A DNA stretch of 64,000 nucleotides from Amphiscolops sp. MND2022. Its lineage: Eukaryota. Shown here in pieces: positions 26,890 to 64,000 of the stretch. The translations under genes were made by a program, and so were the position numbers. The stretch lies in NCBI GenBank assembly GCA_964187785.1, contig OZ076409.1, forward strand, positions 59,522,001 through 59,586,000. The letters are read 5' to 3'. The number at the start of each line of letters is the position of its first letter. The first letter of the stretch is position 1. The notes beneath the pieces are model-generated. The model did not search any database, was not told where the DNA came from, and saw only the letters and a program-made list of their open reading frames with translations.

Positions 26890-28078
26890 AACAAGCCGGG
26901 AACGGCATAAGTCGGCGCCATATCTAAGGCTCAAAAATAGCAAAAGGACTTCAAAGTGTTAAGTATTCGTTTACAGTACCTGAAAAACCCAGAAGTTGGA
27001 GCGAATTGGAGGTAGCGGGCCCCCGGCGCGCGAAAAGTGGGACCCTTTCGGAATTTTTAACATCCATTGCTGCAAAGCACCAAAAAATTGAAGGGGGACA
27101 CTTTGGGGATTTTTTTTTCAAAAAAAGTCCCAATCCCGAAAAAAACTAATAGACCCTTTGGGATGTTGAAAGACCCTTTGAGATTTTTCAACATCCATTC
27201 TGACGCCAAACATTGAAGTCTGTGCCTCTCTCAAGGTTAAAAAACAAGTTTTCAAATAAACAGAGGGGCAGTATTGTGAAAATTTTTTTACCGAATTTAC
27301 AGCACCAAAAAAGAACCGAAGGACTGGAACCGATACCCTTAGGACTGGAGAAACGTTTACCTTGGCTCGAAACATCAAAAACCCCATTTTTTGAAAAAAA
27401 TGTCGATTTTTTTGCCGAAGAAGTCTCAATGCCGAAAATCCAAGTGGGAGACCCTTCAAGTTCGCAAAACGAGCCAAAAAGATCTTCAAAAGTGAAGGGG
27501 TAGGTAACCTTTGACAAAACAAATTTTTGAAGAAAAGTAGCACAGCGTCGATAAACCGTAGATCCTTCTCACAGGTATTGAGAAACCTCTCAGTCCCACA
27601 TGACCTAAAAATAATCTAAGATTGTACTTTTATTACTTGAGAAACGGTTTCAATTTTTTTTCGAGAAAAATTCAATTTTTTTTCAAAAAGAATGCTTCAA
27701 AAAGTCGCAAAGTGTCGAAAACTACTATTTGAACCTCTATGCTCGCAACACGCTCCGTTTCTGTCGGAAAGCAGAGGGATGCTTTCCAGTTGAAAAAATA
27801 TCTGAAAAATATTCGCATAGTGCCGAAAAACCCAAAGGGGGATACATTGGTCTCCTCCCTACTTTTGCAAGCACATAAAATTTCGGTTTAGTGCGAGACT
27901 CAAACTCGCGGACTCCTGCTTTTCAGGCATTCTTAGAAATCTTACTTAACTTCTATGCCAAGTGAAGTTACAATACTTCTATGGCAGTCAGACAGCTTAT
28001 AGAAATCTGTCAGTTCGCCGGTCTTGAAAAAAAAACCACTGCTATAGCCGGGCTCTCTTTGAGAAGCGCCGACTAAAA
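26890..28078 (+). mobile_element. Long family A Helentron-like copy
   Basis: AACAAGCCGGGAACGGCATAAGTCGGCGCCATATC start; TAGCCGGGC..GCGCCGACTAAAA end. Confidence 0.6.
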
Positions 28079-35000: not shown

Positions 35001-38000
35001 CTGACTACTTTAAGATAACAACCACACTGTTTAGAGAATGTGTACCAGTTCAGAACGGAACTTCAAAAAATTGACCGCATCTAAGATTTCTATCGTGCCA
35101 GGATATCTGTAACAAGGGAGCTTTCAATTATTTTTTCGATCAGAAACATCGCACCGAGAATCAATACAAGTAAAACATTCTTGGCGTGAGTTGTTTCTTT
35201 TGCTCTAGTACAATTCTCAATTCAGGATACTGTTGAAAGTGTTTGCTTGAATTGCAGTTGCAAAAAGTATGTTTATGCCCAAAACTTAATAACCTAATAA
35301 CGCGAACAGTAACTCAAAACAAATTAGCGTTTTGTGAGCCTAAAAATTCAAAGATTCTGAATGCTTAGTAAGAAAAACCGCTACATCTAATTCCAAGAAG
35401 ATTAAAACTAAAAGTAAAATGGGACCTTCGGATAGAAGTTGTAAAATATCTCCTTTCTTTCCGAACTCAAGAAGTGTACATTGGATGAGTGCCTGTTCTG
35501 ACTTGAGTTTCTTGTTGGAGGATCTCTTGAAGCAGCGAGACGGCAAATTCTCTTTCCGCAGAGCAACAGCGTTGTTTTTTGCAGCTACAGAGGACAATTG
35601 GAGTTGCGTGGTTTTGGGCAATTCGTGTCTTTTGCAAAAGTTGAATACACTTTGGGCCTTGTTCTGATCACCCATGGCTTCTCGATGGATGATCACCTAA
35701 AAATGAATGAGATGGCAAAACTGGCATAGCAACAACTCAGGTTTGTCGTAAAAAACAAGTACCCAACAAGAACTTATAATTAGCAGCAATTAGAATTCTT
35801 CTCAAGTTTCAAGCCCTTCTCTAACTGAAAACGTGGGAAAAATGGAAGAGGACCATTCTGTGAAAAGTTGAAAATTTCGAAGAAAAAAAAACGTTGCAAG
35901 AAAAAGCCTAAGAGTTTCTCAGTTTTGGTCCCAGATAGTTTAGTTTCGAGGATACGGTAAACACTATTAAAAAAACCCTAGGAGATTACCCTTCAACCCT
36001 CCCTTTAGAACTTAGGCGTAGTCTCAAAAGTGGACCATTCAGTGTGAGGTCTCTGGTCTGACGAAAAAAAATTGTCTTCAAGTATCTGGCACTTTCTTAC
36101 AAAAAGCGCCAACTGAAGGTGGCTTTAAAAAGGACAGCGAAACAAACATTCTAGAGGACAATAAATATGCCGCCCAATTGAGAAAGTTTCGGCGAAGAAG
36201 AATCACAACATGTGGGATGGGGCTTACCTTTTCCTTACACATGATATTCGTGATACTACAATTATCAACGACACCTAAAACTCTTCAAAGTAGATAAATA
36301 AATTGTGGTTACCAGCTGACCTGTTTGACTAGCCATTGGATGATGGGGTAAATGGCGATGTAGTTGAATCCCTGGATCTCGTGGGGTTGGATGGCGTGGG
36401 GGCACTTCATGCGGGGCAGAACAGACACTATCTTCTCCACAAGACTGATCTTCTCTCCCACGTTGGCGTTCTCTTGGAACAGGATGTCCACATCCACGTT
36501 GAAGTTGCAGATGGTAATGCACCACACAATGCCACCCACTACTTGGTCGAACGGAGACAGACCCTAAACACGTTTCATCACTTTTACGAGTTACCTCTCC
36601 TGCGTCTAATTATTTACAATCGAAAATGATATTTTCAATATAAATCTAGGGGAGCATGGCGTAGTGGTTGGGGAGCATGGCGTAGAGGTTGGGGAACATG
36701 GCGTAGTGGTCGGGGAGCATGGCGTAGTGGTCGGGAAGCATGACGTAGTGGTCGGGGAGCATGGCGTAGTGGTCGGGGAGCATGGCGTAGTGGTTGGGGG
36801 GCACGGCGTAGTGGTTGGGGAGCATGGCGTAGTGGTTGGGAAGCATGGCGTAGTGGTCGAGGAGCATGGCGCAGTGGTCGAAGAGCATGGCGTAGTGGTT
36901 GGGGAGCATGGCGTAGTGGCCGGGGAGCATGGCGTAGTGGTTGGGGAGCATGGCGTAGTGGTTGGGGAGCATGGCGTAGTGGTTGGGGGCATGGCGCAGT
37001 GGTCGGGGAGCATGGCGTAGTGGTTGGGGAGCATGGCGTAGTGGTTGGGGAGCATGGCGTAGTGGTTGGGGGCATGGCGCAGTGGTTGGGGGCATGGCGC
37101 AGTGGTTGGGGAGCATGGCGTAGTGGTTGGGGAGCATGGCGTAGTGGTTGGGGGCATGGCGCAGTGGTTGGGGAGCATGGCGTAGTGGTTGGGGAGCATG
37201 GCGTAGTGGTTGGGGAGCATGGCGTAGTGGTTGGGGAGCATGGTGTAGTGGTCGGGGAGCATGGCGTAGTGGTCGGGGAGCATGGCGTAGTGGTTGGGGA
37301 GCATTGCGTAGTGGTCGGGGAGCATGGCGTAGAGGATGGGAAGCATGGCGTAGTGGTTAGAGCATTTGGCCTGTACTGGGACGGTATCAGGTTCGAATCT
37401 CTCTCAACTTACCATTGTTGGGCCTTAAGCCTTCCATCCCTAGCTTGGTGGTATGGTCAGTGACAAAAAATAACGCATTTGGCAGCGATATAAAGCAATA
37501 TACAAAGAGCAACGGTGAGCAGTCAGACCTTTGTGACCTTGAGCAAGTCACTCTGAAACCACAGCTTTAAGTCCACCATTGCTTGACTATTGGGCTGCAA
37601 ATATGGTACCATAGCTAGCTGTGGGGAGACAGTATCCGAAAGGGCGCCGACTTAGAAAAACAGAACTGCTTATTCGGCGTCCACCTCGCGGAATTGTGGA
37701 AATAAACTTTGTTTTGTAGGAAAATAGATTTGTGTAGTTTGAATTGGGGAAATTTTTCTCAAGGTTCATTATTTTTTAAGCTTGCCAATATTTGCAACGC
37801 AATATAAGGAAGATATCATTTCCTAACGAAAACGCAAAAACCATTGGTTTTCATCACCATTGAAACTTGTACACATACACAATCAGGGATACATCCGACA
37901 AATACATTTTCAAACTGAAAAAATCAGACTCGACGGACAAGATTTGAGAAAAAATCGGACGAAAGAATATGCTTGTAGTTTATATTTAAGTTTGTAAACT

Positions 38001-41000
38001 ATAAAGAATATGCAACCGATTCTACTTTCTTCGGCTTTCCGTTTTTGATCCAAATGTAGTTTCATTATTTAGACAATGCCACGTAACCACATTTAAACTT
38101 GTATAGTAGCAGAGTTCTAATGACTATACAAACATGTATTTTTAATTTAAAAGTTTTATATTCAGAAAAACCACAGTCGTGAAATTACTTTGAAACCACT
38201 CATCCGATGAATTATGTTTAATGTGGCATAATTTTTGACACTAATTGTCGCACTTACTACACTTTAAGGTGCATTTTATAGACTAATGTAAAGGTCCAAT
38301 TATCTCTTGTAAATTTAAGTTGTAAGTATTTGTTAGATAAGTAGAACGAATAAAACATACACACTGACTGCAAAAATGCACCGAATGCACTATGACTCCT
38401 CCTACTGAATGATTGTTATGAAGATCGGCCGAAACTGCAATTCCAAAAAAAGTCAACAATGATTTTTTTTCGGGATTAAATATTTGAATGAATCTACGGA
38501 AGTAAATCTTTCAATTCGACACGTATTTCTCAATAGAATCTCAACTTTAAATTTTGAACAAGACGGGATCGTCTCAAGTCGGCGCCATATCTAAGGCTCA
38601 AAAATATTCAAAGAACAACTATTGGAAACATTTGGAAAAATTATTTTTTTTTCAAAAAAAATTTTGAATTTTTTTTTTCGAAAAAAAGTATTTTTTAGAA
38701 AGTCGCACAATGCCGAAAAACTCAAAAAGAGGCCATTCAGGCTCATTAAACGTTTTTACAAACCGAAAACTTCAAAAAAATGCAAGGTGTTACCCTTTGA
38801 TAGAATCCGAAAATTTTCGAAAAAAAAGTCGCATAGTGCCGAAAAAAACCCAAAGGGGGGACCCTTTGGTCTCACTTGCTGTACTTTTGGAAGCATAAAA
38901 ATATTATGGTTTAGTGCGAGAATCGAACCCCCGCTCTCTGGCTTCAGAAATTTAGTCGAAGATGAACAACAGAACAGATGAACAAATTGTAAAAAGTGGA
39001 CCATTCAGAGTGAGATTGTAGGCTGAAAAAAAACTACCCACTGTAATAGTCGGGCTTTTTTCCTTAAGGGAAAAGGCGCCGACTAAAAAGAGGTGCAGAT
39101 CCAATGAATTCCACTTTTCCACCGCTAAAAGGTTTTTCAAGAAATAAGTATTCCAGCGTGTGTTGTAAACTCCCATGCTGAAGAAACTATTTGGTGAGAA
39201 ACAATTTTTGAAAATCAGTCAAATGACGAAAAACTTGAAAGGGGGAAATTCAAGGTGAACAAGCCGAGAACGGCCAAAGTCGGCGCCATATCTTAGGCTC
39301 AAAATTTAAAAGGGGGACCCTTCGGGCTTTGTGAAACTCCAGCTGGTTGCAAAAAATTTTTAAAAAATTGAAGGGGGGACCCTTTGGAGACATGAAAAAA
39401 TTTTGGGAGATTTTTGAACAGTGTCACAGTGCCGAAAAATGTAAAAGGGGGGACCCTTTGCGATTTTTTGACATCCATTGTGTTGCAAAATATCGAAACA
39501 AATGAAGGGGGGACCCTCTTCTGAGGTTGGAGTTGTTGAGGTTTGAAGTTGTTGAGGTTGTTGAACAAATGAACAAAAAAGTGGACCTTTCGTGTCTAAA
39601 AAAAACTACCCACTGTAATAGTCGGGCACATTTTCTACTAAAATGCGCCGACTAAAAACACTGAAAATAGCAAAAACGTACTTTGTGATTTGTCGAACGC
39701 TTGTTATTCGAATTTAAATCACACAGTGACCGAATTATTAAAATAGGCCCCTGCGGGACACAGTATTATTTCTGCTTTTAGGCTTTCATGTTCAATAATA
39801 AAAGCATATCTTAATCATTTATATAGCGCTCCTATATAGTCCTCTCGGACTAATGAAAATATAACTAGAGAGTAGACGAAGTTTCGCAGTCGCATTTGAA
39901 TGCAGGCGAAGCTCTCGGCGAACAAATGATTAACACTCGTTCGCTACATCTCAAAGAATTCGGCGTACGAATACATATTTACCACTCGCTCGTTTCATCG
40001 CACGAGAAACGAATTGTTGTCGGCAGCTTGAGAAATGTACATCTCACCCTTATACTCACTGCCAAACAAAAGATATGAATTCTTCAGTAGGTACTCGGAT
40101 GGCTACCAAAACGTCGACTGAAGACAAGTTGTATAATCCAGGTTTCCATGTTATTCCTGCTATCGCAGGAATAATCGAAAAGTGCGACCCTTTAGACGGG
40201 AAAACGCGTTTTTACACGTGAAAACACACAAGACGCCCACTGAGCAACGGGAAATTTTCCGCTTCAACTGAGCCAAAGCTATTTTATTTACTTGACTGTT
40301 TTAGTTACAAGTAACTATTACTTGGTTTATTTTAGTTACTAGTAACTAAAAGTCAAGTGGATGGAGATCGTCACGATCTCCACGGTGTAGATTTGGCAAT
40401 TTGGAAAAAAAAACGCAACACAGATTATGATTTTCCTCCCTATTATATATAGATATAAATAAACAAGACGGGAACGTCTAAAGTCGGCGCTATATCGAAG
40501 GCTCAAAAGGCCCAAAGTTTTTAAAATTGTGAAGGGGGACCCTTTAGACTTTTTCAAATCTAGTTTGTTGCAAAATATCAAAAAAGTTGAAGGGGAGACC
40601 CTTTGGAGACATTTAAAAAATTTTGAAAAAATTTTCGAAAACGAAAAATGAGAATTTTGAAACAGTCCCATAGTGCCGAAAAACTAGAAATGGGAGACCC
40701 TTTGGGCTTTTTGAAACTTCAGTTTGCTGCAAAATATCAATAAACTTGAAGGGGGCCCTTTGGCAACAAAAGAAATTGAAAAAAAGTCGCACAGTGCCGG
40801 AAAAAATTCAAAGGGGGGACCCTGTAGTCCCGTCCCGTTTTGTAACTTACGTTAAAAATTGAATACACGGAAGGGGGACTCTTTGCACTAACTTAGATGC
40901 GTTTCCGCTTGCCGGTCCAGTAGCTCAGTAGAAAAAGTGTCCACTACGCATACATTCTGTGGTCTGACGAAAAAAACTTGCCACTGTAATAGTCGGGCTC

Positions 41001-44197: not shown

Positions 44198-44713
44198 AAC
44201 TAACTATTCTGGAACGATGAACTAATTTATTTTTTGATTATTTTATTTTCATTCATTGACTCAGTTATTTCTAATGGAATAAACTTTTTCTAATATGTCT
44301 GCGCTGAAAAAAACGTAAACCATTACCACTTTAGTGAAATAATTCAATTGGTTGACGAAATTATTATCCGCCGATACTTCCTGTAAAGATTGCGAAAAAC
44401 TAACATTTTCTCACTTATCACGCGGTTATCCAATTTTATACTTAACCAGACGAGAACGACGCCCTGCTTAAAGCTCAACATAATTTTATAAATATGATAG
44501 ATAAGACCCTTTAGGCTCTACAACTCAAAGGATGGGCCCTTTGGTGAAACAATTTTTTTTAAAAAAAGTTGCACAGTGTCGCAAAAAAACCCAAAGATGT
44601 AAAAAAGGAAAATTTAAAGGAAGGACCTTTTAGCACCTGTCAGTATATTTTAGTTCTTAGGCCAAACGATTGCAAAAGAGGACCTTTCAGAGTAGAAATT
44701 GCCGTTTTACGTA

Positions 44714-45227
44714 AAACAAGCCGGGACCGACCCAAGTCGGCGCCATATCCAAGGCTCAAAAATAGCAAAAGGACTTCCAAGTGTCAATTTACAGTACTCG
44801 AAAATCGAAAAACCAAAACAATGGACCGAGTGGCGCGCCGGGGCCCGCTAGCGCGAGCACCTGGCGCGCTAAAGAGAAAAAATTTTAGAAAAAAAGTCTC
44901 ACAATGCCGAAAAACTGAAAGGGGGGACCCTTTGGGGTTTTTCAACATCCATTCTGTCGCAAAACAGCAAAAAAATTGAAGGGGGGACCCTTTGGAGAAA
45001 TTTTTTTTCCGAAAAAGTCTCTCAGTGCCGAAAAAATTGAAAGCGGGTCTCGCCCGGTATGGTATGCTACGCGGGAAAACAGGAAAAACCTTTTTGGTTC
45101 AGTTCGCTAGGCCAAATGGTGCAATAATATTTTGTAGAACTTTTAAGAACTATTTTGGTCAGTTCGCGTGGATTAAAAAAAAAGTCACTATAAGTCGCGT
45201 TTCACTTCATGAAGCGCCGACTAAAAA
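44714..45227 (+). mobile_element. Family A Helentron-like copy upstream of CCDC93
   Basis: Same terminal motifs; closely resembles the minus-strand copy at 104-743. An opposite-strand copy lies at about 45308-45870. Confidence 0.6.
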
Positions 45228-47680: not shown

Positions 47681-49883
47681 ACTTCAACTGGCCGACTGAT
47701 CAACTGAACGAAAGCGCAACTGACCGACTGATTGAATGATGAAATTGAATTTGATTGGTTAATGGAAATACGAGACGGTTTCGGTAATTTCATCATCTTG
47801 TCGGAGAATTTGATTGGTTAATGGAAATACGAGACGGTTTCGGAAATTTCGTAATCTTGTCGGAAAATAAACTACGTTCGAAAAACGCGTCGAAAAATTC
47901 CATATCAGCGATTATTTCAGGTTGTTATTTGAAGTGGTTAGCATATTTGTTGTATGGCTCGGTCGCTTCGCTCCCTTCGCCAAGTAGCAACACTGAGGCA
48001 TGGCCACATGGCACGTCGCTCCGCTTCGCTTCGCTCCTGCATTTAGGGCACTAGGAGTATGTGAACATATCTGACTACGTTATCGTAATTTTCTATTCAC
48101 GCATTCGGCTAGTTGCACATTCTTCCAATTGAACAGTCGGCCAATTGCACGGTACCCTGAGAACCCAATATCGAATATTACGAAATTAGAAATGTTCATA
48201 TTTCTCTATGCAAATTTCCATTGCTAAATAGCTAATTTCATTGTTGAATTCTGTGGACACTTACACCTACGAGAATTCTCAAAAACTTAAATAAATTGCA
48301 TAAAAACTCAAAAACTGAAAAAATGGCAATTTTGGGTCGTTCTGGGAAACATTTATTTCAACCATTTGTTCCAAAAAAGTTCCACAAAAACATATGCTAT
48401 GTACTTAACTTTATGATGTTGAATTTTGACAAAAAAACGTCTACCATTTGGGTATAAATTTGGAGCATGGGAAAATTGAGCAAAAAAGAGCTGTTGAAGT
48501 AATAACTTTCCTTTCCCACATATGAAGTTAAATAGAATTAACATTGGACGCGAGGGAGTTTTTTCATCGTGAAGTGTATTGTAGATGCACTTTCTTTGAA
48601 ATCAAGAAAATAGATTGTGGCGCCACAAAACCTTCCATAACTATCACGGTACCTATAAATGTACATAGTCTCCACCCGTGTAGAGTCACGATTTCTATAG
48701 GCGGAGCAAAGTGTCGACGAAACTGATCTCCTGTTAAATTCAGCGGTTCTGACAGATTCAAGAGCCAGAATGACGTAATTGTTTGAAAAATACATGTGAG
48801 AACAGGTTCTCGCGTGGTATAAAATCAATTTCAGCTGAATACAAAATATTTCCAACAATGATTTTCATGTTCTCTCTCGAAAATGGCAAAGTATTTTTAG
48901 CGTGAGCGCAAACTCGCATACCCAACATTTGTCAGTTCAAGCGAATTACTATTCATAGCCCTCGAGTATATTGAATTTCTACCCAGGAGAGTCGACAGGC
49001 TCTCGATAAAAGGCGAGATTAGCGACTCCTGGGCCGCTGGTTTCCAACTCCAACGGGATAGCCCTGTTCAAAAGTGTAAGACGTACTGCAACTTTACTGA
49101 AGTAGATTTTTAAAGAATTGAGATAAGCGAAACTTTTTCCATTCAATCCAAGCTAAAACTTCGCCATGTTTTCAGATCGAAACAAACCATGCGCATTTCA
49201 CATTCTTTAGTCCTGAAAATACGTCCTCGATTCAAGCCGCACTTTCGTTATGATAAACAATCAGCCCTATTATGATTCCCGATCCATAGGCGAAAACGCC
49301 AACACCTAGCAATGCACTTTAATGAACATTGTACCCAAGACCAGACATCAGAGATGGCGGTTTTATGCGTTCGGATATTCTTGCATACTCGCATACATCT
49401 TTTTCGCATATTCGGCAATCAAACAAATTGCGCGCTAAAGAGATACCGGGTCCAACAATCGCATTGATATACATGCTCGTTTGAAACACTTCAATTTCGT
49501 TTTTTTTTTTAAAAATAAACAGTCGAAATGGACACTCGAAATTTATCCAGGGACGCAAAAAACACTGAACCAGCGATGCAAAAAATAGGTTCAAGCTCTT
49601 AAGAGATGTTCGATGTTGATTAAAGTTGTTTTCAGAGGACCGTCAATTATTGACACCTGAGTCGTCTTATGCAACGGAACATATGGTTCTCATTGGAAAT
49701 AGCGGTAAAAGTTAGTTTTTTTGAGATTAAAATGACACTTTTTATCAGCATCTTAAAGCACATTTTTTGACAAAATTCATGGTATCTTGCATCGTAACTT
49801 TTACTATTTGTTCCGCCATAAAACTGTCATGCTTGTAGCCGACTTATTCAAATATATTTCTACACATGATCTTGTTAATCGAA

Positions 49884-50296
49884 TGTCATAGATCAAAAAG
49901 TTTAGGCAGAGCTGTGGAAAAGTTTTATTCATTTTGGCAATTCTTCTAGGAGCTGAAGGGTTCTCTCCTATAGAGATTCTCCGGAAAGTGAGAGTTGATG
50001 TTTTGAATAATTAATTAGAGTGTTTCAGAGAGATGAAGGTATTTACAAAATGTAAGAAGGAGTTTAGCATAGTTGAAGATATACTTGAAATATCGAAAAG
50101 AAATGATAGAGGTTCTGGTTGAACGTGTTTATAGTTCGTTAGTTCTCTCAGTTGTGTGTTGGGTCCACTTCCAGTGCTACAGAGGCTTTCTCATCGTATT
50201 CGTGTTGATCTGTGATTGGCTGCCACATCTGATTAGTCCACGTCTGTCCTGTGAATACTTGAACGAAATTTTGTACATGATTCTTGAATCATGACA
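49884..50296 (-). repeat. 3' LTR (413 bp)
   Basis: Matches 62219-62631 except for one substitution seen by eye (GAGCTGTGG versus GAGCGGTGG). Confidence 0.97.
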
Positions 50297-51387
50297 CTAC
50301 CCACAATTGAGAAGTGTGGAATGTCCAGGTGAAGACAGACGGGGTTTGCAGCAGCGTCAGGCGATGAAGAAGAGCGTGAAACACAGAAGGAACCATTATT
50401 ACTGGGATAGCCGACACAAAAACCCGGGGAAAGGAAAAAGGAAAAATGAAGAAAGTTGAGGAAAAGGGGGTGCCTCAAAAAATGAAATGAAAGAGCCTCT
50501 TAAAGAAAAGCATGAAAAGTAGAAAAGAGTGGCCAAAAGAGCCAAATTGAACTATGCGATTAGTTGAATAAAGCTGCTAGTTTGTTTATAAAATGTTTGT
50601 CGTTTTAATTTATAAATTTTGATAGTAAAGAAAATGTTTACGTTGTGTGATGTTTTATCACCGAATTTAGGGGACGTGCGGCGGCACGTGCCTGAAAGTA
50701 GCTTTGCTTTATCAGTCAGTTTCCTGTACGAACTAACTGGGCTTATCTCAGTTATAAGATTACCATATTTGTTTTGTTCGCGTAATTTCTGTTCTTCAGT
50801 TACTTATGTTTACAAACTGAAGTGTACGCGATGAAGGTGTCAACAAAGTTGAGCAGTCAGCTAGAGAGAAAAAGCTATTCAAAGTCCAAAAGAGTATATT
50901 ATGAAAGCGGACTATGATTGGATAAATACAACAACCAATGAAGATGTGAACAATTTTCATCAGTTGAATAGTTTCAAGACAAAAATGGAGTATAAGGAAG
51001 TGTCTTAAAAATTCAATAACTGGGTGAGAAATGTATATCTCAATGAGCTGGATGACAAAACAACAGCGATGTTCAGAGGCCAAAGTTTACAGTAACAAAT
51101 AAAGGAGTCTGTTAAATAGAAAACAGCAGTTGATGGGAGAAGTTTGAAAACTTCCAAAGAAGCAATGAAGAAAATCTTGATACTGATGTATAGCAGAGTC
51201 ACGACAAATAAATAGAAGAAAGTATTACATGCAAAATTAGAAGAGAAGCAGTAGGCTCTTCTAATCTGAATGAAAGCGCTGGAATAAAGTTTCGCAATAT
51301 GGAAATGAAAAACAACAAAGAAAGTGTTGCAATCACAGCACTGACATTAATCCCAAAAGGGAGGTTTTGAACTTCTCAGGGAAGATC

Positions 51388-52713
51388 TTAAAAGAAGGGG
51401 CGCGAGGAACCAATACACATGTCCAATTGATTCCTGGAGATAAGGGCTGTTTCTCGACCATCTTCCGATACAGCCAGGTACTCAGATTCAATCTCCCATT
51501 GAATCGCTTCAACATCATCCACCTGGGGCATGGGAAGTGGGAGAGCCTGGTAGGTGGTCATAACAGTCCTTCGGGAGGCCAGAGGTATGGACATTGTCAG
51601 CATTAATCCATGTGGCAGAGTCAAGACATCTTGCAGTAATTGAGCTTCGTAATAGGATAGTAACTCCTGAATCGGAATGGCAAGAGTCAGACGGTCCAAA
51701 GCACGGATTTGTTGAATGGCAACTTTATTTAGAACAATTTCGAGAGATTCCTTGCTTAAAAGTGACATAGGGACGTACCTGCTGAGAAGAGCTGGAATAC
51801 TATTCAGCAAGTTTATTCTGTACGCAAAGAGAGCAGCTCGGTAGCTCTTTATGTTCGAATAAAACAATGAAAGCAAAGAAGAAACCGTATCGAAGTTGAT
51901 CTGCTGTCTGGAGTACAGCATCTGATCGCAGTTTCTCATGAGGTGCATGTCCTGTTTGAAAGTATCCATTTGGGTTGCCATTACTTCCCAGTTTGCATTC
52001 TGTATAGATCGCATTTGTTCCTGAAGATCATGCAGTTGGTGTAGTTCTTTACTGACGATATAGAACTTGTCATTCGTTTCTTCATTAAGTTCTTGGACAC
52101 TGTCAGACAATGAAGAAGCTACATCAAACAAGCGGTTAATGTTTGCAGCATTTTTGTTGAATTGACAGCTACCAAAGATTCCACTAAGCCTGCAACTGCC
52201 TGGACCCATTGTTATTCCAGCACCGAAAAGTCCAATTGCACCCAGTGCGGCGGCAGCAACTGGTACAGCTCTCTTGGTGCGGTCAGCAGAATCGGGAGAA
52301 ATGGGCTTCAAGAATGAGGCAGTTTCATGTTGCATGGATTGGAGCTCGGCAGTGGCAGCATCTATCTCGTTCTGTACTTCCTTCCTTAGCCAGTCAACAT
52401 TGAACCCTTCCATGGACAGATTGGTAAATTTCAAATTGCAGTTATACGATGGCATTTTCCAAAGTGTTTCCAAAACAGATGTTAGATGACTTAATTCCTT
52501 TTGAATTTGCACATCGAATTGAGGAAATGGCAATAGAAACTGGATATTCACAAATTTTTCGGCTAACAAGATCTTCTTGTCTTCATGAAAGATTATCCCT
52601 TTTTTAAGGGGACCATCAGAGGTGTCATATGGTAACACCGGAGATTGTAGGGGTACCATTGACATAAGAGAAAGAAAAACAAGAACTTTAAAGGTGATGA
52701 GGCGAAAGTCCAT
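51388..52713 (-). CDS. env: Envelope-like class I fusion glycoprotein (F-type), apparently C-terminally truncated
   Basis: Kozak context CCACCATGG; N-terminal signal peptide; furin site RTKR followed by the hydrophobic fusion peptide AVPVAAAALGAIGLFGAGITMG; heptad-rich helix after it; no C-terminal transmembrane segment before the stop. Confidence 0.85.
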   Translation of the reverse strand: MDFRLITFKVLVFLSLMSMVPLQSPVLPYDTSDGPLKKGIIFHEDKKILLAEKFVNIQFLLPFPQFDVQIQKELSHLTSVLETLWKMPSYNCNLKFTNLSMEGFNVDWLRKEVQNEIDAATAELQSMQHETASFLKPISPDSADRTKRAVPVAAAALGAIGLFGAGITMGPGSCRLSGIFGSCQFNKNAANINRLFDVASSLSDSVQELNEETNDKFYIVSKELHQLHDLQEQMRSIQNANWEVMATQMDTFKQDMHLMRNCDQMLYSRQQINFDTVSSLLSLFYSNIKSYRAALFAYRINLLNSIPALLSRYVPMSLLSKESLEIVLNKVAIQQIRALDRLTLAIPIQELLSYYEAQLLQDVLTLPHGLMLTMSIPLASRRTVMTTYQALPLPMPQVDDVEAIQWEIESEYLAVSEDGRETALISRNQLDMCIGSSRPFF

Positions 52714-53301
52714 GGTGGTGTGATCGGGTGATCAACTAAATTTGGTTCTTTTGTACAAATTTGGAACTTTTGGTGGTATCTTGGAAAAAGTTTAACTTTC
52801 AATGATACTTGTTTCTAGATCGGTTCGCAAAGAAGTGAGGCGTGGTAATGTTTACATCCGGAGATGAGGAAGTTCGGTCATTTCAATATTTGAACCAAAC
52901 ATTTGTTCATTTGCGATTATATCGAGTAGTTTGTTTCAACTCTTGAAGTTCCTGCTTTCTTTTAAACAGTCTGTTTATTTGTTTGAGTCTTCTACTTTAG
53001 TTTCACAAGTGAGTACACATGTTTGAGTAGTTTTCGAGTTTTTCAGAGTCTGTGTGTTGTCTTAAGACAACATTAAAGCTAATCTAAAAGGGAAGTCTTC
53101 CAGAGTCAAAGTTTGCTAAACTAAACAGTCACAGTCTTCTAAAGTTTTGTCTAATTTAAACAGTCAAAAGTCAGTATGTGTGACATCGTGTCGTTCCTCA
53201 AATTTGTCCTTTTGTGTTGCCCTGAAGGGACTTACGTAAAAGAAGGAGATCGTATGATCTCTTTTAAACGAGAAAGGGACAGCAGGTGCCCTCCTATCAT
53301 T

Positions 53302-53427
53302 ATGCAGTCGGAGTCAAAAGTTGACATGGAGTCAGTGGTTGTCATCTTTGTCATCATAGGGATGATCAGTCTCTTGCTAATGTATTATATGTACAAAGTG
53401 TATAAAGCTTTTGGACGTCAGCGTTAG
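53302..53427 (+). CDS. Putative 41-aa single-pass membrane micro-protein, antisense within the LTR element (possibly starting at 53176)
   Basis: MQSESKVDMES-VVVIFVIIGMISLLLMYYMY-KVYKAFGRQR: one hydrophobic helix followed by a basic tail. Confidence 0.35.
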   Translation: MQSESKVDMESVVVIFVIIGMISLLLMYYMYKVYKAFGRQR

Positions 53428-53721
53428 TGGACAGTTAGAGAGTCAAGTCAGATGTCAGTCAGTTAGAAACTAAACTAATTCTAAACTATAGATGTATCTA
53501 GTGTATAACTGTAGTTAGTTGTATTTTTATAGTTTTATATAGTTTTGTAGAGTTTTGTATAGTTAGTTTTTGTATATAAGTGTAGAGTTGTATAATCGAG
53601 TTTGTATATAGTCGCGAAATTCAGTATTTCGTGAAGAAAGAGTTTTCTATAGGATCTAATAGTCATAGTTAAGTTTTTGGCTTGATTTTCGTCAGTGTTG
53701 CTCATTTAGGAATTGTAAATC

Positions 53722-55113
53722 ATGGATATGTATCTGCGGGAAGCTATTATGAAATATCTTGACACTCAAGAAGTCAACGATGTTGTCTTGGCTACCGCAG
53801 AGAAAAGGAAGAATTTTCGTCGGTTCTGTGATACCCTTATCTTGAAAGACAACAAATTGCTGTGCAAGGGAAGGTCTGGTGAAGAACCGAAGGTGATCCC
53901 TACCCCTCAACAAGTGGACGAATGTCTATTTGAACGTCATGTGGGGCTTCTGGGTAACCACCTAACGGACAGACAAACCCTTGTGAAGGCATTGTCGAAT
54001 GCAGGTTATGGGTATCCGGTCCGGTTTGGAAGGCGCGCAGCTCTTGTGGACGAGTGAGTAAAAACGCGAATTTTGCACATTGTTGGACAGCAGGCAAGTA
54101 GAAATGGCATGATCATTTACAGGTTTCTCCGGAATTGTCAAACCTGTTTCTTCTCCGGGGTCGCAAGACCTAGGGAAAGAATGTTTCCTGTGTCAGTGGC
54201 TAGGCGAATTGAGCTTTGTGCGAAATTCAACTTTACCTGTCAATGGGAAGAGGTTGGATCCTCTAGGACAGGCGAGACAACGATGGAGTTAGACAGTCCA
54301 CGGAAGAAAGAGCCTATTGGAAAACTAGCGGAAGTCGGAGGGGAGTGTTTCTTCTCCATTTATTACCTACTAGTCGGGCGAAAGTCTGGTAAGAGAATAT
54401 CACATAGATGGGAAAAAAACTAAGATTTTTTGTTTGTTTGTTTTTTTCATGTTAAAAAGTGAAAGCGACTAATATAAATGTGTGTGCAGATCGACATAGC
54501 ACCAACGAGACCAAGAAGTGTCGTGGTATTCGGATAGCGGCCATGGAAATAGCGAAAGACGCCGCGTTCAAGAAGTTCTGCAAAGAAACTCTTGGAACGG
54601 CAATTAGCGACTTCATGACTCAGGAATGTGCCAAAGCGACAGTAGCCGTCACTGAGCACGGGGTTAGGAAAAATATGGTCAAAATGAAAAGTAGTAGAGT
54701 ACATAGAGGCGAAATGTGTAAAAAATGCAACATTTTCACAGATGCTGGCCACAGCAACACTCCTGCAGACTGACATTGCAGTATACTGGCAGTATCAGAA
54801 TGGAGGGGGGTGGGTCAGATACCGTTATGGAGAGGAGTCAAAGGGCCGAACTGGAGTATTCCTGCTTCAGTGCATTCAGGGCGGTCGAGGCCACTATGGT
54901 GCATTCCATTGTGAACCCCTATGGGACTATCCTGAAGCTTAGTGAGTGAAATCACAAAAAAAAAACGAAAAAAGCAGAAATTGGTTGTTCGGAGAACATT
55001 GTGTATTTTTTCGCAGTGTAATGCCTTTAAAACGACATCGGGGGCTCACGCAGGAACCCTGGGACAGCGACGAAGCTGAGGGAGCGGTGGGAGGGAGTTC
55101 CACGGCTATTTGA
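53722..55113 (+). CDS. Antisense five-exon accessory gene: integrase-type HHCC zinc finger plus OTU-like cysteine protease, 355 aa (exons 53722-54053, 54123-54388, 54490-54662, 54742-54941, 55017-55113)
   Basis: Four GT-AG introns (69, 101, 79 and 75 nt; donors GTGAGT, GTAAGA, GTTAGG, GTGAGT) with phases 2,1,0,2 give one open 1068-nt frame. Splicing completes H..H..CQTC and the OTU-like GGECFF..YLLVG / TEHGMLATATLLQTDIAVY / GHY motifs. AATAAA at 55189-55194. Confidence 0.8.
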
Positions 55114-55711
55114 CGACAAAAAATTTAAGTTAAAATCATCCAAAAATTTGAAAAGCATGTATAAGGTCAGTTGTTTGACGGAAAAATCAATAAAGATAAA
55201 ATTGTACCAAATATAGGGTTATAGGGTACCATTAGACGCGTATTGAAGAGAGGAATCCACTGGAGCCATTTGCAAGGGTCTACGACCAACCAATGTGGAG
55301 AAATAGGCAAAAAACTGAAATTTTCCAAGTTTGGGTCAAAAATGGGACGTAAGACAAGAATTTAAAAATTTTTGTCTCCGATTTTCGATTTTTATGGCTT
55401 AATCGGTCTATGGGGTCAAAATATGTCGATTGGGCAAAAACCAGAGGTATCCAAAGTGATTTGGTGAAGTTAGAGACCAAAATGTGCGGCTAATCTGAGG
55501 TATTTTTCGTAAGCAAACTTTTGATCAAATTTTCACTATGGAAAAGTACGGGGGGGTCAAAAGGACGGTAGGAATGGATTCTCCTGGGGCTAACGAAGAT
55601 AACGGTACCAAAATTATGCAGCTCGGATAAGTATTTGTGGAGAAAATTTAAAAAATTACGAAAAATGTCACTTTTTTGGTCAAAAATGGTCGATTTTTGG
55701 GATTTTGTGGA

Positions 55712-58700
55712 CTATTTCCACGGAGGATTGTGGAAAAATGAAGTTTTTTTCGGTTTTTGGCGTAATCTGGTAACACGCTGAGTCGATTGTGAGGATTGTT
55801 GGGGCGTACGATCATATATTGATGGTATTATCACACTTGGATAGCGTTCTTGAAGTGTTAATTCAGCATTTGGAGTTTGGGCTGAGGAGTCACAAAGTGA
55901 GCTTCTAGGCGGTTGAGGGGGGTAAAACGGTGATTGGGCCTCAAATTGAGGGTGGCTAAGATGAAGCGGAGTGCTAGAAGCCATGTGGGAGGTCTGAGTC
56001 AAAATTCGAGGTCTAGGTGACATAGTACGTGATATAGGGGAAACCGGTCTAGGTATTCTAGATTGGAAAGAAGGTGGTGGTGACACCATAGTCGGTAAAG
56101 GGGCACTCGGAAGGGTGCTCGGGTGGGTATAGGTTACAGTGGTGTGTGTTGAACCACCTTGAGGGCTATAAGATGGTCTATTAAGACAACGGTCCGCTCG
56201 GGACAAAGTCTGACTATCAAAACCCAAAAATGTTGAATTTGATGAATTTATGTCTGATGAAGAATATATACGGGAAGGTGTTCGAGATCTGGTCAAAATG
56301 CTAGAGGAAGGGTCACACAGCGGTGGAGTTGCATGTGAAACCACAAAAGCATCAGAATTGTCGGTAGACGACGAATACTGAGCATTATCATCACTAGAAC
56401 TGGTGTCTAAAGCGACATCATCTAGTGTGAAATTGGGGTTTACCGGGAGTTCATTAAGATCATCCTGTGGCGGTGCCTGGTTCAAAGGCGGAGCCATGGG
56501 AGGCTGGGGTGCCAAAGGAGGCGCGGGAGGTGCAGCTGGGGGTGCTACACGACGCGGAGTGTAATAAAATAAAACACTCGGAGCATCAGTAATTTCGTCT
56601 GTAGGTGTAAACGACTTGTCAGTTAAAAGATCAGGTAATGTACTATCAAAAAGGGACGGTTCCGACGTGTGTCTAGTGGACGGATCCGGAACGAAGTTAT
56701 TTTGATGGATTTGGGCTAAATCTTCAATCTGATACTGAGGGTTGACGGGTCTAAGTCGGATACGGTGTACACATTGTGTGTAGTTCGTACCAACTTTTCG
56801 GACAATATAGTATGAGTTTGTCAAAACTTGTTCTACTCGGTATAGAGGAAGCCATTTGGCTAAAGATTTTCCCATATGGTCGTTAACATTGGATAATTTG
56901 GGATTTAAAAGTAGACAGTAACGGTGTTTTGTCAAAGGGGCGGCGTTCGCTTTTCTATCGTAGAAGTGTCTATATTTGTTATATGCGGTGATAGTGGCAT
57001 CACGCGCAGCAGAGAACACTTCATTCATCCGATCTTGCATCGAACTAGTGAATTCGTATCTGGTTTCAAGGTTCTGGAGCGTTCGTAAATTAAAACGGAC
57101 ATCTAGCGGTTTTACCGGTTCACGGCCATGGAAAAGATAAGTTGGAGTACAACCTATTGATACATGGTATGACGTATTGTGAACAAAAGTCGCTAAGTCA
57201 ACGTACGTGTGCCAGTCCTTTTTGATTTTGTTTTCATAAATTCCGAGATACTGCTTGAGAGACGCATGAGTGCGCTCGACGGAGCCAACTGTTTGTGGAT
57301 GTTTTACAGTGGCGTATTGCATTGTTATTTCAAGTAGTTTTGACAATTCAGTCATTACTTTAGCAGTAAAAGCAGTTCCCATGTCAGAGAGTACAGTTTT
57401 GGGTATGTATGATGTTCGCATAAAAACGTGAAAAAGCTGTTTGGCAACATTTGGGGCACTTGCATTTCGTAGAGGTATCGCAAAAAGATATTTTGGAAAA
57501 ACATCCTTAGCAGTCAAAATATGAGTAAAGCAACCTGAATCTGGCAATTTCCCAACAATATCGACTTGAAGCAAGTCTCCTGGGAAATGCTGGTCCACAG
57601 CTAGGGACAAAAGCGGAGGCTTCAATGTAGCATGTTTGACTGGTTTGACTTGCAAACACGAAGAGCAGTTCTTGATATAGTTTGTCAAAAATTCTACGAA
57701 ATTCGGAAAATAAAATTTTTGTCTAAAAATCTGAGCGATTTTTGTGATACCAATGTGTCCTGCTGTTTTACTGTTGTGAACACGGTACAGAAGTTCTGTA
57801 CGTAAGTGAGCAGGGACAACATATTGGCGGGTGATTGTTTTTCCAGTATCATCAAAAAACTTTCGGTATAACACACCTTGGTAATTTTTTAATCGATTAA
57901 AGTGTTTAAGGTATTTACGTAGTTCTGAACTCAAGTATGGAGATGGGTCTGGAGGATGGGTTTCCATCCAATGTAACACTAGTTTGATGTTAGCATCTTT
58001 TTGTTGTTCTTCTCGGAGATTTAGAGAAGTCATCTTGTCAGTTAAATCAAATTCATCAAGAGGATTGGGAGCATGCAAAGCGTTCAGTGATTCAAAGGCT
58101 TTTGAGCAAGTGTTTCCATCTTTGAACGGCATGCAATCGTAGCGGATTGCGTTCACTGAATTATCTGGTACTTGCATTCCCATTTTTAGTGTTACGTTTT
58201 TGACAGGTATTTGAGAATTAAAGCGAAGTTCAAGCTTTGTATGGGGGTGGACATGAATCCTAGACAAGTAATCCGCGGCAGCATTGGCTTTGCCCGGAAT
58301 GTGTCCAAGGACAAAATTAAAATTCAATACGTGGTCCACACAGGTCCAAAGACTAGATGGTATGGTCTTAGCTTGAAAGAAGCGTGTTAAACTACGGTTA
58401 TCAGTTAAGACTAATACTGGTTTAGTGCTACCCCACAAAATGTGTGCAACAGTGTCAAGAGCAAAATGCACGGCCAAAAATTCTTTAGCGTAAATAGACA
58501 GTTTCAGGTACGTAGGCGTGAAAATTTTCGATCCAAAAGAAACGGGTACGTAAGTTTTATAGGTTTTACCTGATTGGTCAGTAATGTAATCTTCTATCAT
58601 TAGTACATAACCGGCAGCATAGAAACTTGCATCGGTTAGGATTACATACTATGCGTTAGCTTTTGGTAATCTAAGAGACAATGTACAAGCTTGTTCAAGA

Positions 58701-60760
58701 TCTTTTCGCAAGGTTTCAATTTGTTTATGGTGTTCGTCTGTAAGAACAGTTTCGTTTTCTTGGCGTAAAAGTTTGTAAAAAGGTAGAAGTTTTTCTCCTA
58801 ACTTAGGTATGAAGGCTCGAAAATATTGGAAAAACCCAATAAATCGGCGAATTTGTTTAGGCGTTTTTGGAACTTTGAGCGTAGACAAAAAGTCGGTTAC
58901 TTTTTTCTTGTCTGGTTGCATACCTTCGTTGGTGATTGTGTTACCTAGAAAGGTCATTTCTTTCAATCCAAATTCACATTTACTTGGAGTAAACTTCAAA
59001 TCTGCCTTCTCTATGCAAACAAAAATTGCTTGCAAGTTGTTAATGAATTCGTCAAAGGTGTTAGCAGCGGTGCCTAAGTCATCTACGTATTGAAAGCATT
59101 GGTCAGCTACAATACAAGGGTAGAGATATTTACGCATAAAAGAGCTAAAAGCACTAACTGAGCGACTAAGTCCTTGTGCTAAGCGTAAATAGGCAAAAGT
59201 ACGCGACAAAAGTTAAAAGAAAGAAGCTGCACTGACAGAGGATCTGCCATTTGCAGTACGTGATATGCTTGGCTACAGTCAAGCTTTGCAAAGAATTTCT
59301 TTCCTGCTAAGTGTGCGCTTACGTCTGCTAACGTTGCAATCGGAAAATTATGGTTATCATAGTCATGTCGAATAAGGTGATTTATTCGACGAAGATCTAC
59401 CAAAAGACGGAGTTTACCAGAAGGTTTTCGAACTGCAAAGATGGGGCCAGAGTATTTCGAATACTTCAATGTGGTTATCACACCCCAATACTGTAACAAG
59501 GCTAGTTCTACTAACACTTCATCACGGTAATGAATCGGTGTAGGCGGCCAAAGAGTGTACATAGGTTCGTCATGTTCTGGCGTTAGTTTAACTTTAAAAT
59601 CATCGTTTTTTCCAATGTCTAACCTATGTCTAGCAAAAATGTGGTGGTAGTCTAAGAGAAGGTTTTCGACTGCACGTCTTTGTTCACTATTAAACACGGA
59701 ATTTTTCCACGGAAATTGAGCTAAGAATTTCTGTTTGTCTAAGGCGTTTGAGATAGGATCTAGTTTCTCTTCTTTTTTCAGTTGAACAATTTCATCGTAA
59801 ATGCGTTTTTCAATTCCAGTCAATGTTCCGGGATTAGAACAATTTTCGGGAGTTGGAAACCAAAGCTCATCTGTCGACGGTGAAACTTTGATCTCCGAAT
59901 CCTGGATAAGCGCATTAATGTTCTGGTTAAAGTAATTCGACAGAAGTTGTGGGTTTATAGGCTGTAGGTATTCGGCTTGTTTCGGTGTTAGTATCGTGAT
60001 TCGTGCAATAACAGAATTTTTCTGAACGGTAACTTTATGAGGCAAAACATTCAAAATGGCAAGTGAAACATCTTGTTTTGCTTTAAGAGTTATGAGTGCA
60101 CTAGTGACACAAAGTCCTGTTTGGTTTTCAAATTTAGCATGAGGTTCAATAATGGCTACGGTTCCATCTGGGTAGGAACAGTTTGGAAAAGAACATTGAA
60201 CTATTTCAGTAGTGTTCGGGTTTATCGATAAGGAACTGTTATTTCTCAAAAAATGGTTTTTTCGAAGAAACAGCACTAATTTTTCCATTTGTGTGGATTT
60301 TTTCGGTGAGTTGAAGAGTTAAATTGGGCAGTTTAAGAGTGCGACTCTTTGGGTGTATAGAAATGTCGTTTTTCTCAAAAAATGGGAGTCCAAGAATCGT
60401 TTGATTCATTGTCTTCAGTAGTAAGAAAGTATCTGTAAATTTTTCGTTTGCAATGTTGAAAGTGGCTTTAAATGTGCCATACGTAGGTACAAGTGATCCA
60501 TTTGCTACTTTAATGGAGCTTGGTGTTGGATCGAAATTGGTTATACTGGTTGGGCTTTCTTTTTTAAGTTTTTTGAAAATGTTTAGAGGCATAGCGCTAC
60601 AAAATGCGCCTGTATCAATAAGAGCTTTAATAGAAAAGGTAAAGTTAATAGGTACTGAGAAAAGTGAAGTGCGAGGCTTTGAGGATAAAACATTAATAGA
60701 GGAAAAAGATGAAGGATTAGGTGAGGCAGAAAAAGAACGGGTTATGTGTGGCTTACCTAG
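55712..60760 (-). pseudogene. pol: pol polyprotein (protease - dUTPase-like spacer - RT - RNase H - integrase - Pro/Ser tail), interrupted in this assembly
   Basis: LIDTGAF protease motif (about 60600-60625); RT FQYVDD; RNase H LTDAS; integrase HNSKTAGH..CSSC, VDIVG, SDMG and VERTH. Breaks: frameshifts near 60255 and 59208, in-frame TAG at 58649-58651. Confidence 0.93.
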
Positions 60761-61964
60761 TTTTTTTGGTTCTGTGCCATATTGGCATCATAGTAGGGTG
60801 ACCAAGGTTGGGTCATCGGGTTGTATTGTGGCATCATCGGTGTAGTCATCTGAGGTTGAGAGAATGACGGTTGGGAAAACGACGGTTGGGGTTGGTAGTT
60901 GGAAAATTGTTGATAAGGTAATTGAGGCGGTTGGCGATTTTGTGGGCGAAACCAACATTGGGCAATTGTATGTCCAAATTTATTGCAGTGACTACAATGG
61001 CGTTGAGAAGATTGAGCATTTCGATTGTTCTGGTTATCTCGTCCATTTTGCCAATTGTTATTGTTGCGTTTCCCATTATTGTTGTTGTTGCGATTGTTAT
61101 TGTTTTGGTGATTATTCCAGTTATTATTTCGCTTCTGGTTGTTCCAATTCTGATTATTACGTTGCTTGTTTTGTTGCTGATTTTGATTTTGAAATTTTTG
61201 CTCATTATTTTTCTGCTGGCTTTGATTTTGATTTTGCTGCATCAGCTGATTTATTGTAGGCTGGATGGTTTTAATTAAATCTCTGATTTCTTCAGAAATT
61301 TTTGCAGTCTCTTGTTTCAAAGTATCATGAGCAACAGAGAGTGCTTGCAATCCTGACAAAAGTTCTTTATTTGAAGCTGGACTTACTTCATTGAATGCCG
61401 TATCATCATCCTCTGGATAGAGGCGATCAACGATCATTCTACTGGCAGCTTTTGCGCAGAGATCCTCGATTGTCGTGTCTTCTGGCTGTGTCATCAGAAA
61501 TCTTCTGAGTTTGATTGGCATTCCGTTTATGAATGCTTCTCGTACTCGTCTCGCTCTCTCGAGTGCTCTATTTTCAGCAGCAACTGCGGGTCGTCCTCCT
61601 GCAGCAGCTCTGGCAACGACGTTTGGGTAAGCCTCCAATGCCAAACGTTGGAGGTCAGTGAGGAAGTCTTGGGCACTTTCCTCGGACGATTTCAATTTTC
61701 TGGCTGAGAAGATGAGTTTCTGCAATTGAACGCGCTGGTCGTTCTGGTATCTCTCACGAAGTGCAGCTACGGCGAGATCATAATCAACTCTCGCGGCTTC
61801 GGGCAGTTGATCGAAGAATGTTAATGCACCACCCTTGAGGTGCAAATGCAGATACTGATGACAATTTGGATGCAGCTTGCATGTTGTCTGAGGAACTCAT
61901 TTAAATTTTCTTTTTCTGTACCCTTAAAGGGTTGAAGATTTACAAAAGGTTGAATTGCGGCCAT
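60757..61964 (-). pseudogene. gag: gag with CCHC zinc knuckle and N/Q-rich region; frame break near 61860
   Basis: Likely start MAAIQPFVNLQPFKGTEKENLNEFLRQ at 61964; continues in ORF 60757-61845 with CSHCNKFGHTIAQC. Confidence 0.85.
60760..60766 (-). promoter_or_regulatory. -1 programmed ribosomal frameshift heptamer A AAA AAC at the gag-pol junction
   Basis: CAA AAA AAC TAG ends gag. The -1 frame (CTA GGT AAG...) stays open through the protease DTG motif. Confidence 0.8.
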
Positions 61965-62200
61965 TTAGAAAGAAGCATTGTTTTTGTTTTCAAGTACGAT
62001 TTGAATTTCTTAGGAGAAAGCAATGATATTTTGTTGAAATGAATTGTATTATTCAGTCAGCAGCGGAAGTGAAGAGAAAAGGTATTGTCAGCATTATCAG
62101 CAGTCTGAGATGTTATTGTTAGTGAAGTGAGTTTATTGTAGAGAGAGTGGCACTTGAGCATTGTTATATTTTAAGTGATTTTGGTTTCTGGAGAAAAGGA

Positions 62201-62218
62201 GAATAGCTCCTGTCACCA
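62201..62218 (-). promoter_or_regulatory. Primer-binding site TGGTGACAGGAG (tRNA-Leu-like)
   Basis: Immediately follows the 5' LTR and begins TGG; 11/12 match to the complement of the tRNA-Leu(CAG) 3' end as recalled (TGGTGTCAGGAG). Confidence 0.7.
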
Positions 62219-62631
62219 TGTCATAGATCAAAAAGTTTAGGCAGAGCGGTGGAAAAGTTTTATTCATTTTGGCAATTCTTCTAGGAGCTGAAGGGTTCTC
62301 TCCTATAGAGATTCTCCGGAAAGTGAGAGTTGATGTTTTGAATAATTAATTAGAGTGTTTCAGAGAGATGAAGGTATTTACAAAATGTAAGAAGGAGTTT
62401 AGCATAGTTGAAGATATACTTGAAATATCGAAAAGAAATGATAGAGGTTCTGGTTGAACGTGTTTATAGTTCGTTAGTTCTCTCAGTTGTGTGTTGGGTC
62501 CACTTCCAGTGCTACAGAGGCTTTCTCATCGTATTCGTGTTGATCTGTGATTGGCTGCCACATCTGATTAGTCCACGTCTGTCCTGTGAATACTTGAACG
62601 AAATTTTGTACATGATTCTTGAATCATGACA
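62219..62631 (-). repeat. 5' LTR (413 bp)
   Basis: TG...CA ends; adjacent PBS; followed by TSD TCGAA. Confidence 0.97.
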
Positions 62632-64000
62632 TCGAAAGATTGAAATTGAGCAGTAACAATTTCATTATCCTTGTAACTAATTTTTTATAATCGTTCTACC
62701 AATAAATGCTAAACCAAAAGCTGTTCAAAATCAAGACCCTGTTATTTCAACAATCAAACACAAAATTAAGTATTTTAATAAGTTGGGTCTCAGATATTTT
62801 CTAAAAAAGTCACATTAAATACATAAAATAATTCTGTCGGTGTCACCTTCAATCTCGGTCCACTTCACTGGAAAACATTATCGAAACGCGAAGAAAATTC
62901 CCCACAACAATGCATCGCTCATTGATCCTCCTATTGAACATGCGCAATAGACTGCAGTTTCTTTCAGCAGGTCCAATTACGACAGCAGGTATCATGAATC
63001 GCAGGATTTTTGAGATTGAAAACACTTCTAGGACAAAATCATAATTTCATTACCTTTTTTATTGGGCTTCCTGTTTTCGTATCACCGGTGAATTCACACT
63101 ACTCCCGACAATTATCACAGCTTTCATGAAGATTTTTAAGAACTTTTGAAAATTTTAAGATTCATTAGCAGCGAGAAACCATCAATACTGAAAATTCGCA
63201 ATTGGTAATCGCTATATGGACTTACAAGTTACCAGAGAAACATGTGTATTTCAGACCCCCTTTCTCAATGGCTATCGACTTTCTCTAAATATAACACCAA
63301 TAAACAACAATTAAGCGAGCTTTCGCATCAATTTTTTAGTCCGCGTTTTCGGAGAAAATGCAAGGCTGTCACAAAGACTAGTTTTTTTTCTCCAGTAGCT
63401 AGGATCCGTCTACTTTCACGAATCATAGATGGAGCAACGATAAAGTAAAAGGCCAATTTGTCTAGCCAGCACGCTATATCCAATTTTTAGATGTTATATA
63501 CGAAGTAAGTTGCGTTTCAGGAAAGAGGCTCAAAAAGCACTCCCACGTGACCCAGCACGCTATATCCGAACCTTTAACCTTATATCCGAAGTAAGTTGCA
63601 TTCTACTAAAGTGGAGGTTCGAAAATATTGCGATATAACCCATTTTTTTAAGACCACAAGCGTTTGCGAGCTTGAAGCTTCTTTTTCGGCACTATGAAAC
63701 TTTTTCCCGACAAAAACTTTCAAAAAATAATTTTGAGAAAATGGTTTTGTTTTCAGTTGGGAGCTGGTTTTCGAATCTTATTCGCATCCTTTCAGGTATT
63801 TTTCGGCACTGAGAAATTCATAAATTTTTAACAATAGTGTCAATAATAAAGGCATTTGCATAATTAAGAGACTTGGTTTTTTGAAACTCGAGCGGGGCGC
63901 CGACTTGGGCTGTGCCCAGCTTGTTCTAGTTTAAGAAAGTGAAATTGTTCGAACCAAAATATTCGAAGCACAAATCAGGAAAATCCATGCAGGTTTTTAT

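Follow-up and report, generated by a model that had tools for sequence, protein, structure and literature searches.

The env-like open reading frame (ORF) on the minus strand at 52713–51388 of the 64-kb stretch analysed here (the window) encodes 441 aa and ends abruptly at ...CIGSSRPFF, which raises the question of whether it is the remnant of a damaged retrovirus-like envelope gene or encodes a secreted protein with a function of its own. It is held by a 12.7-kb Ty3/gypsy LTR element (49884–62631), where it is located 3 kb downstream of pol and between the two LTRs. The parts of the element and its flanks are as follows.

62632–62636, other copy at 49879–49883: 5-bp target-site duplication, identical five bases outside both LTRs
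62219–62631, minus strand: 5′ LTR, 413 bp, TG...CA ends, 1 mismatch to the 3′ LTR
62206–62218, minus strand: probable tRNA primer-binding site (PBS), with a TGG start directly after the 5′ LTR
60757–61896, minus strand: gag-like ORF with an Asn/Gln-rich stretch and a zinc-knuckle-like motif (zf E 0.016, weak)
60239–60787, minus strand: aspartyl protease part of pol (Pfam gag-asp_proteas, E 3.8e-4)
58649–60318, minus strand: reverse transcriptase and a weak dUTPase-like spacer (RVT_1 E 5e-11; dUTPase E 0.096)
55712–58648, minus strand: RNase H, integrase (H2C2 and rve) and a long Pro/Ser-rich tail (Pfam E 4e-13, 2e-14 and 1e-9)
52714–55711: pol-env spacer, 3.0 kb, with short antisense ORFs at 53176–53427, 53722–54057 and 54688–54942 on the plus strand
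51388–52713, minus strand: truncated F-type env, 441 aa, with signal peptide, RTKR, fusion peptide, HRA-like helices and the first part of a beta-rich head
51395–51403, minus strand: deletion junction, env codon 438 fused to the start of the family 3′ UTR
50297–51399, minus strand: family 3′ UTR, T-rich; first ~130 nt shown, remainder presumed
49884–50296, minus strand: 3′ LTR, 413 bp

The pol domains are in the order PR-RT-RNaseH-IN (Pfam), which is of the Ty3/gypsy type, and the best PDB match of a sister Pol protein is Ty3-G (E 9.5e-42), the next being a PR/RT/RNase H chain (E 1.7e-22). The likely ATG of the gag-like ORF, judged by eye, is at ~61964 in another frame, and a weakly dUTPase-like region lies between protease and reverse transcriptase (60239–60318 and 59980–60230, minus strand; Pfam E 0.096). 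The probable PBS was not found in the PBS table in supplement 1 of Chary and Hayashi (eLife RP108449, PMC13524379). By comparison with sister Pol proteins the pol of this copy is broken in three places, by frameshifts near 60250 and 59210 and by a stop codon at 58651–58649, and so the copy cannot transpose alone.

An earlier note, made from the letters of this DNA, had described the env product as having a signal peptide, an RTKR furin site, an Ala/Gly-rich fusion peptide, a heptad helix and the CIGSSRPFF end, and the observation is confirmed. The N-terminus is hydrophobic at residues 3–28 (Kyte-Doolittle window-19 mean 1.8), RTKR occupies residues 145–148, the Ala/Gly-rich hydrophobic stretch follows at 149–170 (window-19 mean 1.96), and modelled helices span 187–212 and 221–310; the same window-19 profile gives no hydrophobic segment after residue 170. 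This protein (P0001) has 128 relatives at E≤0.001 among 8000 scored candidates, the best of them 97% identical, and thus the ORF is not a chance one.

That the element carries an F-type env, as the earlier note held, is supported by fold searches with a natural full-length sister, P0128, and by Ty3-G as the best PDB match of pol. A profile search is negative for P0001 itself, which has no Fusion_gly or Baculo_F match in Pfam at E≤1, and positive in part for its relatives, with Baculo_F matched by 4 of 57 aligned family members (best E 2.8e-6) and Fusion_gly by none of the 57. The truncated Env is assigned to the F type through its relatives and the fold. The AlphaFold model of the 760-aa P0128 (pLDDT 75.2) has the F proteins of RSV, Nipah, NDV and PIV5 as its top Foldseek matches among PDB entries, of which 111 match at E≤0.001 (best E 4.7e-7), and in BFVD it matches baculovirus F (E 5.7e-17) and also chuvirus-like glycoproteins, with E down to 1e-19. 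VIA-align places P0128 residues 33–549 onto NDV F 35–439 (Z 8.6, rmsd 5.9, 315 aligned) and residues 34–553 onto the RSV F head (Z 7.8, rmsd 5.2, 245 aligned). These Z-scores are middling (8–9), and TM-scores stay low since the comparison uses single chains of what is a metastable trimer; coronavirus S2 scores equally high, but only on the N-terminal half of P0128 (residues ~52–386). A sequence-profile search of the PDB gives weak influenza HA2 fusion-peptide/helix matches alone (best E 0.002), which we read as generic class I resemblance. A furin motif lies ahead of the fusion peptide in 20 of the 23 proteins tested. The similarity to class I fusion folds whose absence would have refuted the earlier note is thus present in the sister protein. 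Support for the 760-aa Env of the family as a class I fusion protein, of the F type known from paramyxoviruses and baculoviruses, is consistent, if not overwhelming.

Full-length sisters show what P0001 is missing. P0128, P0132 and P0133, all in the closest cluster (31 members, 15 of them listed), are each 760 aa long, and P0001 is 96.8% identical to P0128 across its residues 1–438 and then diverges immediately. A C-terminal hydrophobic segment, which forms the helix 643–670 in the P0128 model, is present in 20 of 23 proteins tested, namely all 20 of at least 688 aa, and is absent from P0001 and from two proteins of ~605 aa. The earlier note had asked whether siblings have a longer env with a transmembrane (TM) segment, and the three 760-aa sisters with their TM helix are just that. 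No trace of sister residues 441–707 was found by tblastn anywhere in the window. The DNA beyond codon 438 is identified through P0146, a frameshifted relative from a subfamily only ~84% identical, in which, near the end, the stretch that encodes the sister C-terminus is translated in the +1 frame (compatible at 32 of 35 positions, where ~8 are expected by chance and the best of 17 other offsets gives 12) and which then continues for 43 residues past the position of the env stop. A frameshift-tolerant alignment sets these 43 residues against window positions from the junction down to 51268 with a score of 116; the next best place in the window scores 41, and 100 shuffles gave a mean of 42.7 and a maximum of 56. 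Thus, what follows codon 438 in this copy is where the family 3′ UTR begins, and the env frame runs three codons into it, from which the last three residues of the 441-aa Env are encoded, because the last 320 codons and the stop have been removed.

Loss of the 3′ part of env by deletion, which was one of the two explanations offered in the earlier note, is therefore supported by the 760-aa sisters and P0146, and the junction as mapped from these proteins puts the loss at about 960 nt, made up of 320 codons plus the stop. By the alignment of P0128 with NDV F, the cut (sister residue 440) is not at the membrane but inside the F head, about 110 residues in; the deletion takes 7 of the 12 ectodomain cysteines, and several of these show almost no variation across the family; the HR2-like helices, the anchor and the tail are lost as well. 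The absence of HR2 and of a TM segment thus stands as it was first described, but the missing part is larger than was thought: 320 residues out of the 760 that the sisters have. On its right side the deletion ends no more than about two codons away from where the sisters have their env stop, a place at which a random deletion would rarely end; this counts against random deletion and keeps a splice-derived origin alive.

Of 391 proteins compared, 365 are env-like, and 34 of these are at least 88% identical to P0128 (the close relatives). At position 440, 18 close relatives read through, 2 start after it and 13 end earlier at scattered places; this copy is the only one of the 34 that ends there. 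The closest cluster has 16 members beyond the 15 listed, and some of these could be copies with the same junction. Two 441-aa proteins of a more distant subfamily, P0370 and P0376, stop close to this point, but their tails differ, and they are not counted as having this break. In sister P0002, residues 708–743 correspond at 94% identity to the env piece at window positions 51952–51851 read in another frame; that sister copy has a rearrangement of its own. The family comprises 354 clusters at 50% identity with E≤1e-30, and no related locus was confirmed among 291 pattern matches in metagenome contigs or 34 in viral contigs.

Over 438 env positions this copy differs privately by 10 substitutions and a 2-residue gap, where five sisters have 2–4 private changes each; the pol of this copy, at 19 such changes over 1539 codons, is within the sisters' range of 0.7–5.1%. 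If all 29 private substitutions post-dated insertion, 5–6 LTR mismatches would be expected in 413 positions and only one is seen (P about 0.03). This shortfall gives weak support to the idea that the element was already partly damaged before its last reverse transcription and was mobilised in trans by a helper. Env loss and trans-mobilisation are common in such element families, and truncated copies are the usual fate of env-carrying gypsy elements.

Several other origins of the junction were weighed. The element might stem from reverse transcription of a spliced RNA that lacked the 3′ third of env, as would fit a right border about two codons from the sisters' stop and LTRs that are almost identical despite the damaged interior. 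The last shared codon, however, varies in amino acid in P0133, which makes a poor fit to a canonical donor (in this one sequence), and no second copy with the junction is present among the 34 close relatives; we regard such a processed copy as unlikely. A repeat family of many near-identical copies is also one in which an assembler might drop 960 nt, with the frameshifts then being read errors, but the LTRs, target duplication and primer site are coherent and other copies are truncated or interrupted by stops in many different ways, the pattern of real decay, which makes an artefact highly improbable. The earlier note had allowed that a spliced exon in 50300–51380 could supply the TM segment, and no exon homologous to the sisters' anchor was found in the window. 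As for a substitute anchor from a downstream exon, 39 AG sites yield 14 combinations of AG and phase that lead into a stretch free of stops and containing a hydrophobic window of at least 1.8, two of the 14 have a YAG with a pyrimidine tract of at least 75%, and two of 20 GT sites in env codons 301–440 fit the donor consensus at 5/7 or better. T-rich DNA does this by chance, however (79 of 200 shuffles reach the observed maximum of 2.33 and 195 reach 1.8), the window lacks homology to sister residues 441–707, and the product would still be without the rest of the head and HR2, so that a downstream anchor is extremely improbable.

The second explanation in the earlier note was that the ORF encodes a secreted ectodomain acting as a decoy or restriction factor. 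By analogy with Refrex-1, a co-opted remnant might block infection by its own family through receptor occupancy or by poisoning Env trimers, the latter perhaps through its retained fusion peptide and HRA helices. The 441-aa frame is indeed open and has a signal peptide and furin site, its N-terminal part models well, and Refrex-1, which acts against feline ERVs, provides a mammalian precedent (PMC9245640). But a frame of 438 open codons is unremarkable at ~1% divergence, the truncated form is found in one of 34 close relatives with the other ends scattered, and the env has more private changes than its sisters, some within conserved motifs. The cut, moreover, lies inside the head and parts Cys433 from downstream cysteines that hardly vary across the family, the insertion is young (LTR mismatch 1 of 413) and has had little time for co-option, and pol of the same copy is broken. 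With its break unique among the 34, its mid-head cut, its excess of private changes and its broken pol, the locus gives the decoy or restriction-factor idea no support, and we think it very unlikely. There is likewise only a very slim chance of a combination, in which the element was copied from an RNA that lacked the 3′ third of env up to the stop and its secreted F fragment, with fusion peptide and trimer-forming helices, would serve as a dominant-negative poison or decoy against the sisters' 760-aa Env. Such a combination would make the locus a newborn equivalent of Refrex-1, of the F type and in an invertebrate.

The locus is very probably a single, recently inserted, defective copy of an F-type env-carrying Ty3/gypsy LTR retrotransposon whose env has lost ~960 nt, and the damage is most likely no more than the usual decay that befalls elements of this known kind. 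A further point against decay is that the model of the truncated Env has a mean pLDDT of 75.8, similar to that of full-length P0128, with a drop only in the last ~10 residues, and so does not indicate misfolding. By analogy with Drosophila errantiviruses, the intact family Env would be furin-cleaved and membrane-anchored and would let virus-like particles enter cells such as those of the germline. In this copy the internal deletion of ~960 nt probably arose by template switching during reverse transcription or by end-joining repair, and some of the lesions may be older than the last transposition, with a helper acting in trans. With no anchor, no HR2 and half a head, the remnant would be incapable of membrane fusion and is most likely an unselected by-product. 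Intact sister env ORFs make it plausible that the family is, or was, an infectious lineage.

The pol-env spacer and the 3′ UTR contain ORFs antisense to the element. A language-model comparison likens one of 111 aa in the spacer (53722–54057, plus strand) to the zinc-binding H2C2 domain of integrases (score 0.94, 22 of 30 matches), with no Pfam match at E≤0.05; two other copies, 96% identical, make it common to part of the family. At 54456–54942 (plus strand) are two overlapping antisense frames, the second of which, 84 aa at 54688–54942, resembles the C-terminal half of an OTU-type protease at atlas scores of 0.85–0.90, an assignment that is a lead only and finds no support in Pfam or the PDB. 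The H2C2-like ORF and the OTU-like frames may together be a captured and decayed DNA-transposon or host fragment. A third antisense ORF (53176–53427, plus strand; 83 aa) ends in a hydrophobic helix and a basic tail, and has one other copy, of 57 aa and 96% identity, on a contig whose length equals that of one with a sister env. Antisense in the 3′ UTR, a stop-riddled Lys/Asn/Glu-rich ORF-like stretch (50830–51370, plus strand) converges on the env stop; it has no relative among proteins of 204–2000 aa (83 candidates).

Elsewhere the window contains a second, older and fragmented gypsy-like element (20436–23976, minus strand; RNase H E 3e-22), in which no env ORF or LTR pair was noticed, two exons of the host CCDC93 gene (31566–33449, minus strand; Pfam E 7e-36 and 2e-12), from which the host is taken to be an animal, and a decayed hAT-like transposase fragment (17743–18576, plus strand; Dimer_Tnp_hAT E 0.017). 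There is also a GC-rich tandem array with a 21-bp unit that is open in several frames (36566–37441), and a non-coding repeat family with many dispersed direct and inverted copies (233–1144, 26881–27145, 30010–30329, 38545–40761 and 44706–45178), which probably represents non-autonomous DNA transposons.

Comparison with elements and proteins described elsewhere places this family more exactly. Chary and Hayashi (PMC13524379) report 1512 intact env-carrying Ty3/gypsy elements across animals, with F-type and gB-type Env, and by their account those with F-type Env are known from most animal phyla, the mechanism of errantivirus infection outside Drosophila being unknown. The family described here resembles their "errantiviruses", including the non-insect "ancient" group, in its LTRs, PBS, gag-pol-env order and Ty3/gypsy pol, in an Env with signal peptide, furin site, fusion peptide and F-like head and stalk, in the TM of the sister Envs and in its many near-identical copies. 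It is unlike their intact elements in that this copy is defective and its Env lacks a TM anchor, and the family's 3.0-kb pol-env spacer and length of >12.7 kb fall outside what that paper gives as its first prefilter (a gap of ≤1000 nt and ≤10 kb). The repeats suggest that the host may be an acoel worm; no acoel term occurs in the available text or seven supplements of that paper, and six family motifs were not found in those supplements, a weak negative in that table cells are visible to 400 characters; a literature search on the envelope of acoel gypsy LTR retrotransposons returned nothing relevant. In the operational sense of that study, the family is an F-type errantivirus by virtue of its sister Envs, with this copy as a defective member.

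In its modelled overall fold P0128 appears similar to paramyxovirus/pneumovirus F and to baculovirus F (Ld130), but identity is 9–15%, the protein is ~200 residues longer than paramyxovirus F, and it is encoded by a retrotransposon. The lokiretroviruses (PMC7947760) are likewise LTR elements with an F-like Env and an RXKR site, but they have a tether and a second RNase H and vertebrate hosts; sister Pol P0329 has one Ty3-type RNase H region (558–685) and, with Pfam profiles only, none before the integrase at E≤0.05. Refrex-1 and other restriction factors derived from truncated ERV Envs also kept the signal peptide and lost the anchor (PMC9245640), but they keep the receptor-binding part of a gamma-type SU and have tested activity, whereas the Env here is of the non-homologous F type, cut mid-domain and with no sign of selection. 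If the decoy idea were nevertheless true, invertebrates too would be shown to use a broken Env as a defence against the retrovirus-like elements in their own genomes. As found, the copy matters little, since by the account in PMC13524379 F-type env gypsy elements are already known from most animal phyla; its modest value lies in the family to which it belongs, an F-type env lineage that is large, has been active recently and has antisense ORFs in a pol-env spacer of unusual length.
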